A DNA stretch of 63,731 nt, filler included, from Reticulomyxa filosa (lineage: Eukaryota > Protista > Foraminifera): the NCBI GenBank assembly GCA_000512085.1. It is 24 parts of 24 records of this genome, joined end to end, with 100 filler letters (N's around TTAATTAATTAA, not from the genome) between each part and the next. Parts side by side here need not be neighbours in the genome. Positions count along the whole stretch, not along the records: positions 14,716 to 19,279 come from ASPP01043485.1; 23 more parts are not named here. The stretch is one strand, 5' to 3'. Positions 2,383 through 54,105 of this stretch are shown here, one piece after another (within the stretch, counting starts at the first letter, position 1; each line of letters opens with the position of its first letter). The position numbers were made by a program, and so were the translations under genes. The notes under the pieces are model-generated. The model saw only the letters and a list, made by a program, of their open reading frames with translations. It was not told the DNA's origin and searched no databases.

Positions 2383-3879
2383 TCACACATCGTTCGACAA
2401 GAATGGAGTATCGTACGCAGTGCTGCTTGACATCTCATCCGCGTATGATGTGTGGAGAGATGGACTGAGATACAATATGAGACATGAATTTAATTTGAAA
2501 GGAAGAATGTATTGGCGATTGGACAGTTTCCTCAAAGACAGAACTGGACAAGTTGTGTTGAATGGAATCAGCTTCAGCATGAAACAGTTCGGAACAGGAG
2601 TGCCACAAGAATCTTTGTTATTCCTGCTGTACATCAATGACATTACACAAGCAGTCTAGAGTCCAATCCAGTGTGGATGTTCGCAGATGATGTTGCGCTG
2701 TGGATATCAATTTACACAAGTGATAAAAAAGAAATGGAATTACAATTGGATCAATTTCAATTTCACCTTTGGGTATTTCTTCTTGTTCATCTTGAATGTG
2801 ATCGACTGGGTCTTATCTGGGCCAACAGCATCTTCCATTTTGATGCTGATACATTATCCAAACTCAATTGCAACGAATGGAAATAACATTGAAGAAGCAG
2901 ATAATGTCAAGTATTTGTGATTGATCATTGATTCCAGATGACATTTCAGCATCAAATCAACTACGTGTATGGAAAAGCAGCAAGGAAATTGGGATATTTG
3001 ACATTCCTGTGTTCGTACAAAGGAATCAGGGCCGAGTTTAAGTGTTTACAATCTATTGTACAAGACAATAATCAGACCATCATTGGAATATGCGTGTGCA
3101 TTCTGGAATGGTGATTGTCAGAACAAGGATGAAAGAGTCGTTATTTTTTCTGATTGTAAATCTGTTGTAAACTCAGTTCTCAACAAGTGCAATTCAGAGA
3201 CTTATAATTTCCAGATGGAATAAACGAGCAGATGCAGTGGTGAAGAAAGCAAGATTCAAAGCTGAGATGGATCAACCTGATCTCTATCGAAGACCAGATA
3301 AAAGCGCGTCGTTATTAAATTTCCATAGACTGAACACATTCTTCGTGGAAGAATGGAACAGACATTTGACGAATGAAGGAAATGAACTGCAGCCGCACAA
3401 GCACACGAAACGATATTTACGCAATCTGATTGAAGCCCAGCCATTTGAAAAGATCGTGCTCCACAAGTTGGAAGTACACAAACGCAGATTTGTGTGCAGA
3501 GTGATTACAGGCAAAGTGGAATTGAATGGATTCCTGTTCAAGATTAAACGGTCACAGACACCAGATTGCAAATGGTGTGGAGATGAAGAAGAAGAAACTG
3601 TGGAGCATTTCCTAATGGAATGTCCACATTATGAAGGACTTAGGAATGTATGGTGAGCAGCAATCAAGATATTGTTGCCGCATTTCGAATTCAAGAGATC
3701 GAACCTGAAAAGTTTGGTGGTTGATGACAAGACATGGGAACCTAAGACAAGAATAAAAGTCGTCTTTTTTTTTATAGCAAGAATGAGATCATATCCAAGT
3801 TAAAATGAGCACCTCGTCCCAAAAGGAACACACTGCTCTAATGAAAACAAACAAAAAATGGAAAAGATCAACAAAACAT
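2383..3879 (+). mobile_element. Degenerate non-LTR (LINE) retrotransposon: RT, RNase H remnant and C-terminal CCHC (I/Ingi/Tad1-like layout)
   Basis: LLDISSAYD, GVPQ..LLFLLYIND, FADD, VKYL, LYKTIIRPSLEYACAFW, VIFSDCKS (RNase H), CKWC...ETVEHFLMEC. Broken by stops, frameshifts, deletions and an inversion. Confidence 0.92.
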
Positions 3880-14715: not shown

Positions 14716-15273
14716 TGTGTGTGCATTATGTTCTTGTATTTGTGCTGCAAAATTGTCGCACGTGTTGTTTATTGCATTAGATTGTTTGTCGTCAATGTGG
14801 AGCATTTGTTGTGTTAGTTGGTCTAGTATGTTGCAGGTTCTGATGTTAGGTATACTTACTTTTTTCTTGATTTGTTCTTCAAGAAGTATATTCCTAATTT
14901 TTGCGTCGATGTTGTTGTTGTACGTTTGTATTGCGTTGTACGTACTGTTTTTGAGAGGGTTGTGTGTGTTGTTATACGTATTTGTTTGATAGGGTGAGAA
15001 GTTCTTCCCTTTTGCAATTTGCTCGATGATTTCGAGGGGAATTTGTTTGTTGGTGAGTATTGTGACTTTTTCTTTGAGAATATCGGTCACGTATTGCAGA
15101 TTTTGTTGGTGTATGTTTTCTTTGTTGGAATTTTTGCGAGAAAATATGGTTTTGTTGTTGTGTATGATGAGTTTTGCGAGTTGGAGATGTGTTTTGTTTT
15201 TTGCCGGTGCCTTTGAACGTTTTTTTGGGGGTTCAAGGGTGTCGGTTCTTAAACAAAAAAAGACGGCCTTTTT
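14716..15273 (-). CDS. ORF2 of the telomere-associated element: N-terminal region of a putative Penelope-like reverse transcriptase, 3' truncated by the contig end
   Basis: Open from about 15273 to the contig end in the -1 frame of ORF1, with no ATG near its start. VTILTNKQIPLEIIEQIAKGKNFSP resembles the PLE RT N-terminal motif (V.NLS...L...e...L.kG.nF.P). Confidence 0.6.
15205..15261 (-). promoter_or_regulatory. Putative programmed -1 ribosomal frameshift signal: U_UUU_UUU at 15261-15255 plus a downstream stem-loop
   Basis: ORF1 ends TCT TTT TTT GTT TAA and ORF2 reads GTC TTT TTT TGT TTA. Downstream CCTTGAAC...GTTCAAAGG can pair. Confidence 0.55.
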
Positions 15274-18200
15274 TCAAAGTTTGTGTGCCTTGCATCTCTA
15301 TAAAGGTTCCGGTTAGTTGCATGGTAGTTCCTTCTAAAGGTTTGCCAAGGTCTTTGTGTAGTTGGAGAGTTGTTATTTTGACTTTGAAAGTCTGTTTGTT
15401 GACTTGGTTGGTTTATTTGTTGACTGTGTGTGTGATTATAGGCTTCTTGCATTTCTCTAGCTTCACACTGGTTGTGCCAGTGATTTCCTCCACATTTTCT
15501 GCATGGCGATGGAGGCTCTGTGTGTTTGCCTCTCGCATTGTTCTCTGTACATTGATCTGTACCTCTTATATGATTTTTTATGTGCGAACTTGCGTTGTTG
15601 TGAGTTTGCTGTCTCATGTTCCAGTTTGTTCTTTTCTGGTTATTCCGGCCTTCTCTGCGTTGAAACATTCCTCTTTTTCCCCTTTGGGGCTGCGACATAA
15701 ATTTATTGTGTTGTGTTGTGAAGTTGTTGCGTTGCGACATTGCGTCACTGTGAATGTGATTGTTTTGTGTTGCCTCTGTAGCTATGGGGCATTGATTGTG
15801 CCAGTGCATTTCATTGCAGAATTTGCAAGGTTTTGTTGGCATTTTGGTTTGATTGTTTTGCCATCTGTTGGGAATGTTTGGCTTTTTGTTGAGAATGTTT
15901 GGCTTTCTGAAATTGGGTGCATTTGGATGTTGGTATTTGTTGTTTGTAGCACGATTCATGTTGTGTTCATTGCTTTGATGATTAAAGCGATGGTGCTTTT
16001 GAGTTTTGAATTGATTATTTTTATTTTTCCAATGAGATATATCTGTTCTGGTCCTGTTCTTTACTATGTTTTCTCTGCACTCATTATTCCAGTGGTTGCC
16101 GTTGCAGTATTTGCATGGTGTTGGTGGTATGTTTTGTGTGCTCTTTGATATGTTTGTTGCGTTTTGTTCCATTTTGTTGTTTTGTGTGTTGTTTGTGCTT
16201 TCAGAACATTCACTATCCCAGTGTTTACCATTACAGTGCTTGCATGGCCGTGTTGGTATACGTTTTATAGTTTTGTATATATATTTTTGACCTGCACCTT
16301 GTATGTTGTTTTGTTGTATATTGGATTGCCTGTTGATATGATTGTTTTGTTGTATGTTGTGTTGACTATTTATGTGACTATTTTGTTGCTCATTGTTTTG
16401 TCCATGCATATTGACGTCGATGTTTTGTGTTCTTTGTTTGCATATAGAATGATGATGTTTTTTGTCTCCGCAATATTTGCATTTGTATTCGGGGCAGTCT
16501 TGGAACCAATGAAATGCATTTTTATCACAATTGATGCAAGTGTTTTTTGGTGTATTGTGTGGTTGTATTGATTGGCATGTGTATATGTTGTGTCCAATTT
16601 TATTGCATCTCATGCATTTGACATTTAGGTTATTTTCATTGAGGATCCTGTCCATTATGATATTTTCTTTTCTCATGGTGGATTGTTTGATGGCAGCCTT
16701 AACTTTTTCATCGATTTGTATTGGTGGTGCGGCGTTGATACATGTATGAAAATAATAATTTAAATTGTCATATGTATTTTGATTTGGTTGTATGTTTTGT
16801 ATATTATTTTTGATTGCATGTAATGTTTCTTGTATTTCAAGAAGTTTGGATAAGAGTTGTGTTAGATATGCAAATGTTCTCATTTCTCTTATTTTGGCTT
16901 GATTGAGTTGTATGCATTTAGTTTTGATTTTTGTGTCGTTGCATTGTATGATAGGTTGTGTTACTTTCCATCTTATCCGTAGTTGGTTTGCAATTTTGAT
17001 TGCATAGCTTTGACATAGTCTCAGGTTCGAACACATTTTTATTATCCATGTACTTATTTTTGTTGTATTGTGGTCCATGTCTGCAGATGTATCAATGTCT
17101 TTTGTGCATGTATTTTGTATTTTTAATTTTTGTAGGATTTCTGGCAGCTGTGTGCATATGTCATTGATTACGTTGTCGTATTCGCCTGCATCATGATTGG
17201 TTGCGTATATGGTGCTCCAGAGTATGGCGTTTATATTTGTTCCATCGTTGTATATTGCAGAGTTTTGTTTTAGTACCCCGAATTCCTTGAAATCAATGTG
17301 TGTGTTGCTCTGTGTATTTGTTATTGTTTGTTTTAGCCATTGTATGGCGATGATTGGATTTATTTTATCAAATTCATTTTCGTTGTTTTCGTTGATTTTG
17401 CATTCGATAGGCGTTGTGTGTTGCTGCTGCTCATTATTATTTTGAGGCTCATAATTTTGAGGCTCATGTTCCTGTTGCTCATCATTTTGTGATTCATTTT
17501 TGTGTTCCTCATGATTATCATCGATGTTAATATTAATGTCATTTTCAGTGTTATTAATATTATTAATATCATTTTCAATGTTATTAATATTATTATTATT
17601 AATATTGGTATTGATATTGTTTTCCTGTGCCCTATTTTGTGAAGTGTTTGCTGCATCATTATTTTGTGAATTGTTTTGTGAGTTGTTTTGTAGATTGCTT
17701 TGTGTGTTATTATCTTGTTGTGATATATTATTAATGAGTTGTTGTGTGTTGTTACTGATTATTGTTTCAGCTATGGATGTATTTTCATCATCGATATTAT
17801 TAATATTATTATTGTTGTTATTACTACTATTATTATTAATAATTTGTTGTCGCCTATTATTTAATATTTCATGCCGTTGCGTTTTTCGTAGATCGTTCCT
17901 TTCATCGAACCTTTGTTGTTGGCTGCCATAGAGGTTTGTTGTTTGAAATGGTCTTTGTGTGTTATCATTTATATTGTTTGTATCCATCTTTGCCATTTGT
18001 CCAATGAAGTTCCTATTGTGTCGTGTGTTTTGAAGGCTGTATGTGTTGTTGTTTTTGAAGTTATACGTGTTGCTGTTGCCATTTTCGGAGTTATACGTGT
18101 TGTTGTTGCCGTTTTCGGAGTTATACGTTGTGTTATTATTGCTGTTTCCGGAGTTGTTGTTTCCGGAGTTGCTGTTTTCGGATTTGATTTGTGTTGTATT

Positions 18201-18854
18201 GTGTGTTTTTGTGTGTGTTTGCGAATTTTGTTTTTTAGCAATGTTTGCGAATTTTGTATTGCTGGGTTTGTTGAACATTGTTAGAATACTGTCGGGTTGT
18301 ATTTCTTCGTTTGGAACCCTCTCGCTGGTCCTGTTGATGTATACGACAAATCCATTATCGTATTGTGTTACATTTGTCACTCTCCATTGTGCCGATGTTA
18401 TTCTTTGGATACTTCTTTTGAGGTTGGTTAATCGGATTTCATCGTACATTTCGTTTTGCATGATTATTTCATGTATTCGGTTTTGTACGTATCTGAAGTG
18501 TGTTGCTTTCCATGGTTCGCTGTTGTTGCTTTTTTTCTCAATGTTTTCTGCAGTTATTGAGCCTTCTGAAAATTTGACAAATGTCCATACTGTTTCTGTT
18601 GCCTGTTCAAGCTGCTGTGAAACACAGATCATTTGTTTTATGTTATCTGTTTCGTCTCCATTATTGGAGATCCATGTGATGCTTTTGAGTTGCTTTACTG
18701 CAACTTTCATTGTTTGTTCAGTGTTGCCTGGTAGTTGTTGTTGTTGTTGTTTGTCAAATGGAAGATGCGAAAAAGCATGACCATTTTTTTGCACTTTCAC
18801 AGATTTTTTGAAGTGTTGTATTTGCTTGGGGTTTAGGGGTTTGGCTTTCTTCAT
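15249..18854 (-). CDS. ORF1: 1201-aa intronless Gag-like protein with seven CCHC zinc knuckles and N/Q-rich low-complexity linkers
   Basis: CMRCNKIGHNIYTC, CINCDKNAFHWFQDC, CKYCGDKKHHHSIC, CKHCNGKHWDSEC, CKYCNGNHWNNEC, CKFCNEMHWHNQC, CRKCGGNHWHNQC. Confidence 0.88.
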   Translation of the reverse strand: MKKAKPLNPKQIQHFKKSVKVQKNGHAFSHLPFDKQQQQQLPGNTEQTMKVAVKQLKSITWISNNGDETDNIKQMICVSQQLEQATETVWTFVKFSEGSITAENIEKKSNNSEPWKATHFRYVQNRIHEIIMQNEMYDEIRLTNLKRSIQRITSAQWRVTNVTQYDNGFVVYINRTSERVPNEEIQPDSILTMFNKPSNTKFANIAKKQNSQTHTKTHNTTQIKSENSNSGNNNSGNSNNNTTYNSENGNNNTYNSENGNSNTYNFKNNNTYSLQNTRHNRNFIGQMAKMDTNNINDNTQRPFQTTNLYGSQQQRFDERNDLRKTQRHEILNNRRQQIINNNSSNNNNNNINNIDDENTSIAETIISNNTQQLINNISQQDNNTQSNLQNNSQNNSQNNDAANTSQNRAQENNINTNINNNNINNIENDINNINNTENDININIDDNHEEHKNESQNDEQQEHEPQNYEPQNNNEQQQHTTPIECKINENNENEFDKINPIIAIQWLKQTITNTQSNTHIDFKEFGVLKQNSAIYNDGTNINAILWSTIYATNHDAGEYDNVINDICTQLPEILQKLKIQNTCTKDIDTSADMDHNTTKISTWIIKMCSNLRLCQSYAIKIANQLRIRWKVTQPIIQCNDTKIKTKCIQLNQAKIREMRTFAYLTQLLSKLLEIQETLHAIKNNIQNIQPNQNTYDNLNYYFHTCINAAPPIQIDEKVKAAIKQSTMRKENIIMDRILNENNLNVKCMRCNKIGHNIYTCQSIQPHNTPKNTCINCDKNAFHWFQDCPEYKCKYCGDKKHHHSICKQRTQNIDVNMHGQNNEQQNSHINSQHNIQQNNHINRQSNIQQNNIQGAGQKYIYKTIKRIPTRPCKHCNGKHWDSECSESTNNTQNNKMEQNATNISKSTQNIPPTPCKYCNGNHWNNECRENIVKNRTRTDISHWKNKNNQFKTQKHHRFNHQSNEHNMNRATNNKYQHPNAPNFRKPNILNKKPNIPNRWQNNQTKMPTKPCKFCNEMHWHNQCPIATEATQNNHIHSDAMSQRNNFTTQHNKFMSQPQRGKRGMFQRREGRNNQKRTNWNMRQQTHNNASSHIKNHIRGTDQCTENNARGKHTEPPSPCRKCGGNHWHNQCEAREMQEAYNHTHSQQINQPSQQTDFQSQNNNSPTTQRPWQTFRRNYHATNRNLYRDARHTNFEKRPSFFV
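18055..18180 (-). repeat. Short coding tandem repeats in ORF1 (30-bp TYNSENGNNN-type and 15-bp NSGNN-type units)
   Basis: Repeated TTTTCGGAGTTATACGTG and TTTCCGGAGTTG on the + strand. Confidence 0.8.
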
Positions 18855-19237
18855 TATTTACTGTGCCAGTGCTGTGTGTAGCGTTGTTCTCGCTGAGATG
18901 ATCGCGCAAGCGATCATTTTCTCTATTATTGCTAGCCATCTATGGGCTGTGTTGCTGTTGCTGGTACAAAGGAAGGTTTTAAAGAAGAACTGATACTCTT
19001 TCAACGAGACACTAGTGGCGTCCAAGCGGACTCTGTGCTCTTTTGTTTTTAATTAAACAAGAAAGAAAAGTTGAAACAAGAGTTGAAACACTGAACGAAA
19101 AAACCAGGGGTTCTTCTGAACCTTTGTATTTCCTTTGTAAAATTTGGTGTGGTGTGTGTTTTGCTTTGAATTTGTTTGGAACTTTGATATTTTGCTTAGA
19201 GCTTTGTAGTTTTGCTTAGGGTTTTGAGTTTTGATTT

Positions 19238-19279
19238 GCTTAGGGCTTAGGGCTTAGGGCTTAGGGCTTAGGGCTTAGG
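19238..19279 (+). repeat. Telomere-like repeat (GCTTAGG)6, i.e. TTAGGGC units, running to the contig end
   Basis: Six perfect 7-mers with the G-rich strand pointing 5'->3' to the end. Isolated or degenerate units at 19194-19202 and 19214-19221. Confidence 0.8.
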
Positions 19280-30015: not shown

Positions 30016-31396
30016 TCATCCCCAAACACGAATTGGACCATTACCTGAACCATAAAATAAATTAATACAACCATTATTTTTTAAATTTTGTTCATTGTTC
30101 TTCACTTTCTTTTTCAATTCAATAAATTTAAGACAACATATTCCATCATCTTTTTTATGTCCTTTGATAATATATAATTCTTTCTTATTTGATCGAATAT
30201 CCCAAAAACGAATTGTATTATCATCTGATCCAGAACATATCACTTTTGAATTACCATCAATAATTTCATCACTATTCTTTATTACAAATGGTGAATATTC
30301 AACAGCACAAACATAATTTGTATGTTTATTAAATATTTGAATTTGTTGACCAGATCGAATATCCCACAAACGAGCATTTTTATCCCATGATCCAGATAAT
30401 ATTGTATTTATCAATTCATTTGATCCATATTTTACACTCGCCACAAAATTTTCATGTCCTTTGAATAAAATCAATGGTTTGGTTGTTTCAATATCCCATA
30501 TTCGAATAGTATTATCACATGATCCAGAACAAATGGTATATCCATTACCACCAATCACACCAATATCATTACTTTCATTATTGTTGTTATTGCTTTGCAA
30601 TGGTGAAATATCAATACATTTAACAACATTTTTATGTCCTTTGAAAATATGTAATGATTTGGATGTTTCAACATCCCATAAACGAATAGTTTTGTCCCAT
30701 GATCCAGAACACACATATTTACCACCATTAAATGGTGAGAATTCAATTCCACCAATCCATCCATTGTGTTCATCGAATACTTGAAATTGTTGATTATGTT
30801 TGACATCCCAAAAATAAATTGTTTTACCACCAAGTGAAGAACAAATAACATTACGATGGTAATTGTGATAATGATATGGTGAAAATTTTACACAGCACAC
30901 AGGTCCTGCATGTCCACTGAATAATTGAATTTGTTGATTGGTCTCTACATCCCATGCACGAATCGTTTTATCATATGATGCAGAACAAAGTAATTGATTA
31001 TTATCAAATACTGAAAAATCAATACTCAACACAGGATCAGTGTGTCCAGTGAATGTATTGATTAATTTGGATGATGAACTAAATGAATCAAGGATGAGGA
31101 CAGTAGTTGCCTATATTAAATATGATTATTTTATCACATCGACTATTATTTGAATGAAAAACAAATTAACAAAAAGAAACATAACATAATCGACAATAAG
31201 TTTGTCAAAATCCTGAATCCATCCTAATCGAATGCGTAATACTCGAATCCAATGTTGGATAATGATCTGAATCTCTTCTTCTAACTAATTCAATCACAAG
31301 CAAGATGAAAGAAAGCGTAACTTTGTGAAAGAATGAAATGTAAGTTACCAAGGCCAGTTGCGTTGAAGTTTGCTTTTCGTTGCTAGAAGTAGTCAT
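30016..31396 (-). CDS. WD40-repeat protein with an N-terminal helical box, 3 exons
   Basis: Multiple GH...CSGS.D.TIR.WD repeats. Upstream exons MTTSSNEKQTSTQLAL and EEEIQIIIQHWIRVLRIRLGWIQDFDKLIVDY. Confidence 0.93.
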
Positions 31397-48075: not shown

Positions 48076-49471
48076 AGCTCAAAATTCTTGCAGAGATTGA
48101 AGAATTAAAAAAAGACATGATAGATAAGACCACACAAATGCAAATCCAAGATAACGACAAACAAAAAATGAAAGAAGATATCCACAAACGTTTCGAAACT
48201 ATTCGATTGAAAGAAAAGAAAATTTCCGAGAGACAAAGTGAAATAGATAAGCTGCAAAGTGAAAACAACCAAGAAATACTCAAACTTCGTTGTGATATGG
48301 AAAATATAAAAACAGACTTTGTTGAAAAAGCAAAGCAGATATTATTGTCTTGTCATGAACAAAGGGAATATATATGTAATAAAGTCCCTCACAAAAATTC
48401 TAATGATAATTCAAGTAAAAATGAAATCGATCTTCACTTGTTTGGCTCTGACAGACAATCCAATACTCTCATTGGACATACTGGCACTGTGTGGGGTATT
48501 GATTACGGAATATTTGATGATGGCAAGCGATTCATTTGCTCTGGGTCAAATGATAAAACCATACGGGTATGGGAAGCAGATACAACCAAACAGGTGGGCA
48601 TTGCTAAGATGCATTCAAAAGATGTATATTGTGTAAAATTTTCATCATATCATTATCACCATAAAAATTGTCATTCTGTCATTTGCTCAGCATCAGATGA
48701 TACAACTATTCGTTTTTGGGATTTTAAAACCAATAAAGAAATTCAAACATCCAAGAAAAAATGGGCACATCCAAATGGTCATACTGACGGTATTAGCAGT
48801 ATTGAATTTTCTCCATTCAATGGTGGTCAATATTTATGTTCTGGATCATTTGATAATACAATTAAATGTGGGATGTACACACAATGAAAAAGCTGCATGT
48901 TTTCAATGGACATACAGACTGCGTTAGATCTGTGGCTTTTTCACCATCGCATAGTGAAAAAGATAATGCAAATATTCATGGCGCTGGATATACAATATGT
49001 TCTGGATCAACTGATAATACCATTCGCGTATGGGATATTGGAACATATAAACATGTGATTACTTTTCAAGGACATGAAGATACAGTGAATTGTGTAAAAT
49101 ATTTGCCATGTGAATCAAAAATTAGTGGTGGGGCAAATATAATATGTTCTGTGTCATATGATAAAACAGTCCGTTTATGGGATGTTCGATCCAAAAAACA
49201 AATTCAGATTTTTAAAGGACACAAAGATGAAGTATATTGTATTGAATATACATCATTTGAAATTGGTGGTGCACAAGCAATATGTTCTGGATCAAAAGAC
49301 AATACTATTCGTTTTTGGGATGTTCGAACCAACAAACAATTGCTTAAAATTCAAGGGAATGACAATGATCACGGAATACATTGCATTCAATTTTTGCCAT
49401 TAGACAAAAACAATCATAATATATTATGTTATGGGTCAGGAAGTGGGACAATTCGTTTCAACATATTTTAG
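48076..49471 (+). CDS. Coiled-coil + WD40-repeat protein with a 1-nt frameshift at about 48865
   Basis: WD40 repeats continue across ORFs 48117-48887 and 48866-49471. ATT AAA TGT GGG would read IKMWD with one extra A. Confidence 0.88.
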
Positions 49472-52669: not shown

Positions 52670-54105
52670 ATGATAGAAGTTCTCACAATTGAAGTAGGCC
52701 AAGCCGGTATACAATTAGGTAGCGCCATTTTGGAACAATACTGTGCAGAGCACGGAATTGACCACAACGGCAAAAGAAAAGAGAGCTCAGGAAAAGATGA
52801 CTCTTTTAAAGTTTTCTTTGAAGAAACATGTAGTGGCCAATTTGTTCCTCGTAAACTTGTAGTTAAGTACTCCATTTGGCGTTTCGTTTTTCCGTTTTCC
52901 GTATAATATGAGATAAAAATAGGTTTGACTTGGAACCAAATGTGATCGATGGTGTGAAAAACGGCCCTTTTGCGGCAATATTCTACCCTGAGTTTTTAGT
53001 CAATTGGAAAGAGGACGCAGCAAATAACTTTGCCCGTGGTCATTATACAATCGGTAAACAAGTTATCGATAAAATAAATGACCGATTGAGAAAACTTGTC
53101 GATCATTGCGACAATGTTATGGGCTTTGTAATTGGACACAGTGTAGGCGGAGGCACTGGCTCAGGGCTTGGCGCCTTAATTTTGGAACGTTTGGCTGTTG
53201 ATTATAGAAAAAAAACAAAAATTGGTTTTGAAATTTACCAATCACCAAACTTGTCAACCTGCGTAGTTGAGCCTTACAATGAGTTATTGGCGACTCACTG
53301 GTTATTAGACCACACTGAAGTTTCTTTATTGTTGGACAATGAGGCCATTTATGGAATTTACCAAAAACAATTGCGAATTGCTAAACCAGATTTAGACAAC
53401 TTGAACAAATTAATTTAGAAAGTTATCTCCGCTATGACTGCGTCTTTGCGATTTAGCGGTGAATTGAATGTAGATTTGAACGAGTTTCAAACAAACTTGG
53501 TCCCTTTCCATCGTTTACACTTTATGACTACTGGAATGAGTCCAATTATTCCAAAAGTCGATGTATCAACAGCGCCAAACGATGTCCAAAAAATCACCGA
53601 TGATTGCTTTAAGCCAGCGAATTGGTTTGTTAAATACACTGAATTTGATCCTGCCGAAGATAAATATATGGCTATATCTTTAAATTATCGTGATGACATT
53701 AAATCAAAAGAAGCTAATGCAACAGTACAATGGTTGAAGAGTAACAACAAAGTCACCTTAGTTGAATGGTGTCTAACTGGTTTCAAGATTGGCTTAAATG
53801 AGTTGCCAGCAGTAACTTTAGAATCTGATGATATCGTAGCTTTTAGCAAAAATGCTATTATGATTGCGAACAATACTGGCATTTCTCGAGTTTTAAGTAA
53901 ATGCATTGCACAAAAATATGATTTGATGTACTCACAAAGAGAATTTGTTCACTGGTACGTGTGAGAAGGTATGTAAGAAGGAGAATTTGCTGAAGTTAGT
54001 GAAGATTTAGGCTTCTTAGAAAAAGATTATTTAGATGTTTTGATTAAACAACCAACTGATGATGTTGGCGATGATAACGCTAGCGATGACGCATGTGACA
54101 ATTGA
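52670..54105 (+). pseudogene. Divergent alpha-tubulin (alpha2-like) pseudogene with an intron remnant at about 52860-52922
   Basis: GQAGIQ, KEDAANNFARGHYT, GGGTGSG, LNVDLNEFQTNLVP, FVHWYV*EGM*EGEF. In-frame stops at 53416 (TAG), 53962 (TGA) and 53974 (TAA). Confidence 0.9.

Follow-up and report, generated by a model that had tools for sequence, protein, structure and literature searches.

What kind of retroelement carries a Penelope-type signature close to an array of telomere-like repeats in the foraminiferan Reticulomyxa filosa, and how might it be copied? The question is raised by a single 4564-bp contig (ASPP01043485.1, positions 14716-19279) in a window of 63,731 nucleotides (nt) that comprises 24 small contigs of this genome joined by N-spacers. 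We consider it likely that a motif encoded there is the N-terminal signature of the reverse transcriptase (RT) of an endonuclease-less (EN-) Penelope-like element (PLE) with two open reading frames (ORFs), and that this element likely resides at a chromosome end and is likely copied straight onto exposed telomere ends. This amoeba probably harbours a retroelement that adds copies of itself to its chromosome ends.

The motif, KVTILTNKQIPLEIIEQIAKGKNFSPY, constitutes residues 69-95 of a minus-strand frame of 186 amino acids (aa; 15273-14716) and is encoded by nt 15069-14989. This frame corresponds to the 5′ part of ORF2, which encodes the RT N-terminus in the -1 frame and is cut by the contig end. 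Our first-pass annotation had recognized the PLE signature by eye and had proposed a profile comparison, which yields a significant match. The hidden Markov model (HMM) used for this purpose was built from 47 PLE N-terminal blocks. From 145 phmmer hits we set aside the nearest relative and five proteins named Reticulomyxa, which left 139. Of these, 49 have a DK motif and enough upstream sequence, and in 47 the motif block was filled. In each of the 139 proteins, the top-scoring stretch starts at query residue 88 or later, whereas the motif occupies query residues 48-76. Because the best-scoring stretches start after the motif, it played no part in the selection of these relatives. With this HMM, the motif frame scores best of the window's 1194 stop-to-stop frames (E 0.0041, against 0.076 for the runner-up). 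When the 186 aa were shuffled 2000 times, no shuffle reached the 13.8 bits of the real frame (best 10.0). The match is beyond chance, though modest when taken alone. In an AlphaFold2 (AF2) model of ORF2, the motif region adopts a strand and a helix, with pLDDT values of 87-95 over residues 41-70. The stretch preceding the motif, which had been described as basic and rich in His and Lys, is indeed rich in Lys (12 K, 3 R and 3 H vs 5 D/E in 68 residues), but its share of His (3/68) is about that of ORF2 (4.3%).

The contig stops upstream of the RT domain, and the frame is carried onward through the PLE RT motifs and thumb by a predicted protein of a sister copy on a 4720-bp contig (P0003), which is misannotated in public as a xylanase precursor. 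The motifs of P0003 are ADHNEG (at the DKG position), IKLHKK, YRPIIS, GIDIKDF (A), GLAQGD (B′), YGYMDD (C) and KFLDL (E), followed by the thumb. Thus, the RT motifs that the first-pass annotation expected in the extended ORF are present (motifs 1, 2, A, B′, C and E), with a degenerate DKG position. The two closest proteins are both named R. filosa. P0003 is identical to the ORF2 fragment at 165/165 residues over the shared part, and the ORF1 products of the two copies are identical at 646/739 residues. A third copy (P0005), which is not labelled partial, matches P0003 at 226/235 residues. The perfect identity in ORF2 (14716-15210), as opposed to 87% in ORF1 (15249-17500), suggests that the copies have recombined or that the assembly has collapsed them.

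Word-index searches found zero relatives for the ORF2 fragment at near length and zero for full ORF2, and a full HMMER search with ORF2 returned 145 proteins at E<=1e-3. Within this set, [PL]KxHK occurs in 91 proteins, DK in 64, the N-terminal pattern in 45 and a strict GIY-YIG in 12, and RVT_1 is found in 13 of 15 relatives scanned. Judged by motif, most of the 145 are PLE RTs. The best relatives bear PLE motifs, some with a C-terminal GIY-YIG, and the trees that we built from the relatives hold no TERT or LINE (long interspersed nuclear element) outgroup. The nearest Atlas clusters score 0.96-0.97; several have PF26215 in 28-84% of their members, and Rotifera are the commonest source. An AF2 model of the RT on a 104-row alignment (pLDDT 84.5, pTM 0.85) matches RT folds in Foldseek, with TERT 3du5 as the best hit, and the alignment profile retrieves RTs in the PDB. 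Judging from these motifs and the predicted fold, ORF2 is a PLE RT, and this RT is of a divergent Penelope type. The classification had been said to rest on the N-terminal motif; the motif holds, and the class is now also backed by the RT motifs, the thumb and the relatives.

As far as the sequences reach, the RT ORF is one that stops after the thumb and has no GIY-YIG at either end, as in EN- PLEs. P0003 and P0005 terminate at the same residue, with 428 and 305 uncoded bases, respectively, left on their contigs, and their tails past the last conserved block measure 21 aa versus 63-189 aa in GIY-YIG rows. In the nearest relative from outside the Reticulomyxa-named set, the metagenomic protein P0006 (locus L001), a genuine stop codon follows the thumb. 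A GIY-YIG HMM built from 20 hits gave at most 0.6 bits for 20 test sequences, which included six frames each of this contig and of L001, whereas all six held-out controls scored 45-62 bits. An N-terminal nuclease of the Naiad/Chlamys type is therefore ruled out within this contig. Assignment to the endonuclease-bearing (EN+) PLE clades Penelope/Poseidon, Neptune, Nematis, Hydra, Naiad and Chlamys was rejected on the absence of GIY-YIG. Neither the lack of an endonuclease nor a divergent lineage had been part of the first-pass annotation.

A chromosome-end position is suggested by the opposite end of the contig. In minus-strand order, the contig presents a (CCCTAAG)6 cap, degenerate 20-nt units, a short ATG ORF, ORF1 and the start of ORF2. 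The cap (19238-19279, minus strand) lies at the very end of the contig (Tandem Repeats Finder: period 7, 6.0 copies, 100%), is matched by no other array in the window and has no counterpart in 100 shuffles. Its C-rich strand lies on the element sense strand, so that the reading direction leads away from what is likely the chromosome tip. This layout, with the array at the 5′ end and the ORFs pointing inward, is that described in excerpts on Coprina-1_Alen (PMC13159263), for which 13/13 copies point away from the tip, and on EN- PLEs (PMC3846280). CTTAGGG would be the telomere repeat of this organism, given its T2AG3-like form, strand and position; the telomeres of most Rhizaria are undescribed according to an excerpt of a 2026 paper (PMC13746701). 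Next to the cap are approximately three degenerate 20-nt units with telomere-like words (19163-19233, minus strand; Tandem Repeats Finder), which are possibly a healing seed or a 5′ leader. Among the 24 contigs, this one is also the most strongly AT-skewed (-0.43), and its sense strand is 46% A.

ORF1 (15249-18857, minus strand) encodes a gag-like, N/Q-rich protein of 1202 aa that comprises a helical mid-domain, which is conserved, and seven knuckles of the CCHC type. The knuckles (15465-16616, minus strand) follow the pattern C-x2-C-x3-5-H-x4-C and start at 16616, 16538, 16481, 16244, 16115, 15827 and 15503. Relative to the sister copy, the mid-domain is nearly invariant and the linkers are divergent. 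Family leads for ORF1 are weak (nucleocapsid/zf-CCHC), with all Atlas zf-CCHC leads below 0.8. Pfam gives zero matches on ORF1, Rfam gives 0 matches on the 4564-bp contig, and a single-sequence AF2 model of the mid-domain is unusable (pLDDT 43). A 61-aa ATG ORF (18754-18939, minus strand) overlaps the start of ORF1 in another frame and has an ORF1-like composition, with the switch at an A7 run. It may be the true ORF1 N-terminus, severed by a 1-base indel at this run near 18789.

How ORF2 is expressed is a question of its own. Recoding or splicing is required because the first Met of the ORF2 frame, residue 157, lies downstream of the motif. We lean toward -1 frameshifting, and the sequence makes it moderately probable that this shift is programmed. 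A T-TTT-TTT heptamer (15255-15261, minus strand), which is in frame with ORF1 and lies two codons upstream of its stop, is a candidate slippery site, and among the six canonical heptamers in ORF1 it is the only one that keeps the -1 frame open (182 aa, to the contig end, versus 7-38 aa for the others). A predicted hairpin (15204-15245, minus strand) located 9 nt downstream is a candidate stimulator, and a search for pseudoknots at the junction found none that is convincing. An ORF1 set off by a frameshift is a listed option for PLEs, including Athena, in excerpts of PMC8557442. In both copies, the gene model bypasses this junction by removing a 44-nt GT-AG piece, and a 44-nt intron (15254-15211) that joins the two ORFs of the same element would yield the same frame change; introns are also among the possibilities that this paper's excerpts give for PLEs (PMC8557442). 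We regard splicing as unlikely, given that these public models, which join the ORFs exactly at this piece, are ab initio predictions and that a perfect slippery heptamer adjoins the putative intron. Splicing would also delete a PPKKRSK stretch, and the AAG acceptor is unlike those of apparent host introns (mostly GTA/GTG...CAG/TAG with long AT repeats, as judged anecdotally by eye from one gene). Slightly less probable still is that ORF1 and the RT form one long frame, broken here by an inactivating indel or by an assembly error in a homopolymer. A6 and T7 runs are present at the junction, a comparable offset occurs at the A7 run near 18789 and the two copies may share reads here; yet the break falls at the same position in two contigs that are 87% identical in ORF1. 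Moreover, relative L001 likewise has two overlapping frames (441-520), in this case at CTT-TTT-CGT, which fits the recognized UUU_CGN +1 motif known from amalgaviruses and named in the abstract of PMC5052127.

Two further rivals concern the class and the location of the element. The combination of gag-like knuckles and a -1 frameshift is typical of long terminal repeat (LTR) elements, and the fold search ranks TERT (E 1.3e-8) and LINE-1 ORF2p (1.6e-8) alike; a PLE-like motif could accordingly have arisen by chance in a telomerase gene, a LINE or an element of the LTR/BEL type. We find this very improbable, since the sequence relatives bear PLE motifs and RT plus thumb take up only ~670 aa. As the first-pass annotation had noted, there is neither an aspartic protease motif (ORF1, the fragment of ORF2 and the whole sister protein contain zero D[ST]G[AS]) nor an APE domain; Pfam gives neither APE nor protease, and the Pfam scans and motif search found no RNase H or integrase. 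An EN- PLE might also have inserted into telomere-like repeats that form an internal tract or an array, or be mobilized in trans, rather than occupy a chromosome tip. Contigs break at any repeat, arrays of EN- PLEs with repeats between units are described in excerpts of PMC6431247, and L001 is a 4806-bp head-to-tail or circular unit with a 123-nt terminal repeat (1-123/4807-4929) and no telomere-like repeats found. This location is nonetheless unlikely in our view because the cap strand and the orientation match terminal attachment, and the CCCTAAG array is the only one among the 24 contigs.

Several observations weigh against a chromosome-end EN- PLE with a frameshifted RT. Regarding the RT, the DKG lysine is replaced by His in P0003 (an intact ADKG is found in P0006), RVT_1 is absent from P0003 in Pfam at E<=1, and the level scores of TERT and LINE-1 in Foldseek point to no single class. 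The only Pfam match over the cut-off on the ORF2 fragment is DUF1548 (E 6.5e-5), which is unexplained and was not used. The RT, thumb and stop are known from the predicted proteins of other contigs, not from their DNA. At the junction, the hairpin is weak (z -2.5, with 4/200 shuffles equal and a rank of 79 among 1502 windows), the shared break is perhaps not independent evidence because the copies are 100% identical over the first 165 aa of ORF2, and the shift in L001 is +1 and not -1. As for the chromosome end, the cap is assembled to only six units, the element 3′ end (hammerhead and telomere-complementary tail) lies outside the window, and L001 has neither telomere-like repeats nor an Rfam hammerhead (its two Rfam matches are at chance level). 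Our literature searches also found no report of CTTAGGG as the Reticulomyxa telomere repeat.

If the element does attach to chromosome ends, its anatomy, together with what has been published on EN- PLEs, suggests how it might be copied. A single RNA would be transcribed from the telomere side inward. Most ribosomes would yield the gag-like ORF1 protein, whose zinc knuckles might serve in RNA packaging or as a chaperone, whereas a minority would slip by -1 at U-UUU-UUU to produce an ORF1-RT fusion that retains the nuclear-localization-like PPKKRSK stretch. The nuclease-less RT would prime on the G-rich 3′ chromosome overhang, and the host would then add CTTAGGG repeats past the element 5′ end. 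Priming on the 3′ overhang and capping of the 5′ end with telomeric repeats by the host are described for EN- PLEs in excerpts of two papers (PMC3846280, PMC6431247).

The element appears to belong to a small, long-branched and previously undescribed lineage, as far as its sequences tell. The signature G-[YF]-[MLV]-DD (motif C) or G-[DS]-x-D-[AS]-P (B′) occurs in 6/145 relatives, namely four Reticulomyxa-named fragments and two metagenomic proteins. In a 42-row tree of unlabelled rows and no outgroup, in which long branches and odd composition were flagged, a branch with an SH-aLRT of 98 separates the query and four signature proteins from 14 GIY and 23 no-GIY rows. In an 87-row FastTree, for which 58 short or unmatched hits were left out, the query and P0006 form a pair at 0.999. 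ORF1 shows no similarity to the ORF1 part of L001 (best E 1.1), and the lineage may have switched both its ORF1 and its type of frameshift. Our literature searches, which paired Penelope-like with Reticulomyxa and covered protist EN- PLEs and knuckle-bearing ORF1s, returned no description of the element, and the supplement of Craig et al. does not name the genus; prior naming is possible, with Repbase/Dfam outside the search. Other Reticulomyxa-named RT fragments (P0007-P0010), at 30-36% identity, point to several families of the lineage in one genome. P0006 has no match to viral contigs. A non-coding stretch of L001 (L001:2645-2700) could form a hairpin resembling a tRNA T-arm or B-box, and ARAGORN calls no tRNA in L001.

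Elsewhere in the window, a zf-RVT domain at 3171-3653 (plus strand, E 5.7e-7) represents the 3′ part of a LINE-type ORF2 on a different contig. By eye, an alpha-tubulin-like frame at 52912-53964 (plus strand) contains one in-frame stop near 53416 and is likely a pseudogene, and WD40-repeat genes lie at 30016-31110 (minus strand) and 48078-49471 (plus strand).

According to excerpts of PMC8557442, telomerase has its sister group in the PLE RTs, and EN- PLEs at chromosome ends have been proposed as a model of the telomerase ancestor. If our interpretation is true, a long-branched rhizarian lineage whose motif B′ has a TERT-like Q-G and whose ORF1 is gag-like would provide an independent sample near the split between PLEs and telomerase, and CTTAGGG would become a candidate telomere repeat for Foraminifera. 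A bolder proposal, which we hold only tentatively and at somewhat less than even chances, is that the lineage is a third deep-branching EN- PLE clade apart from Athena and Coprina that has diversified into several families in Foraminifera. It would have acquired a retrovirus-like gag that has multiple knuckles and is expressed through frameshifting, would be a PLE counterpart of Drosophila HeT-A/TART and would expose CTTAGGG as the hitherto undescribed foraminiferan telomere repeat.

Among known systems, the Drosophila elements HeT-A/TART/TAHRE work in a similar way: they have a knuckle-bearing gag and an A-rich sense strand, as here, and the head toward the chromosome tip, as is likely here. 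They are non-LTR (APE-RT) elements that replace telomerase, whereas the present element has a PLE RT and a simple-repeat cap. The EN+ PLEs (Penelope/Poseidon, Neptune, Nematis, Naiad, Chlamys and Hydra) share its N-terminal motif, DK-position motif, RT core and thumb; unlike them, it has no GIY-YIG at either end, no long fingers insertion (A-to-B′ 62 aa vs a median of 58) and a separate large ORF1. Coprina, known from fungi, a diatom, Selaginella and a shrimp, is also EN-, has the same order of nuclear localization signal, DK, RT and thumb and occupies chromosome ends with its ORFs toward the centromere, as is likely here; Coprina-1_Alen also has two ORFs in excerpts of PMC13159263. Its ORF1, however, is coil/disordered, and its B′ reads GLAMGIACSP in the CoprinaP1 row of Craig Fig. 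S1. The present lineage further differs in Y-G-Y-[ML]-D-D at motif C, in a motif E-to-thumb stretch that is 30-80 aa longer (63-111 aa vs a median of 33) and in a G for the proline of the thumb H-P. Athena, the EN- PLEs of bdelloid rotifers (Terminons), resembles it in two ORFs, an optional frameshift, an RT without GIY-YIG and, if the repeats here are telomeric, a telomeric-repeat 5′ cap, as far as the excerpted descriptions go. The mostly rotifer origin of the unlabelled Atlas look-alike clusters is a lead only. In contrast, Athena is described as rotifer-specific, its ORF1 is a coiled-coil rather than seven CCHC knuckles, and the two Athena rows compared from Craig Fig. S1 read GGAMGS at B′, as opposed to GLAQGDSDAP here. 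The Q-G of motif B′ is shared in this figure by the TERT rows and by a few Naiad/Chlamys rows. The element would work like Athena and Coprina; its B′ differs from their rows in this figure, and its lineage stands apart from the 23 unlabelled no-GIY rows in our tree.
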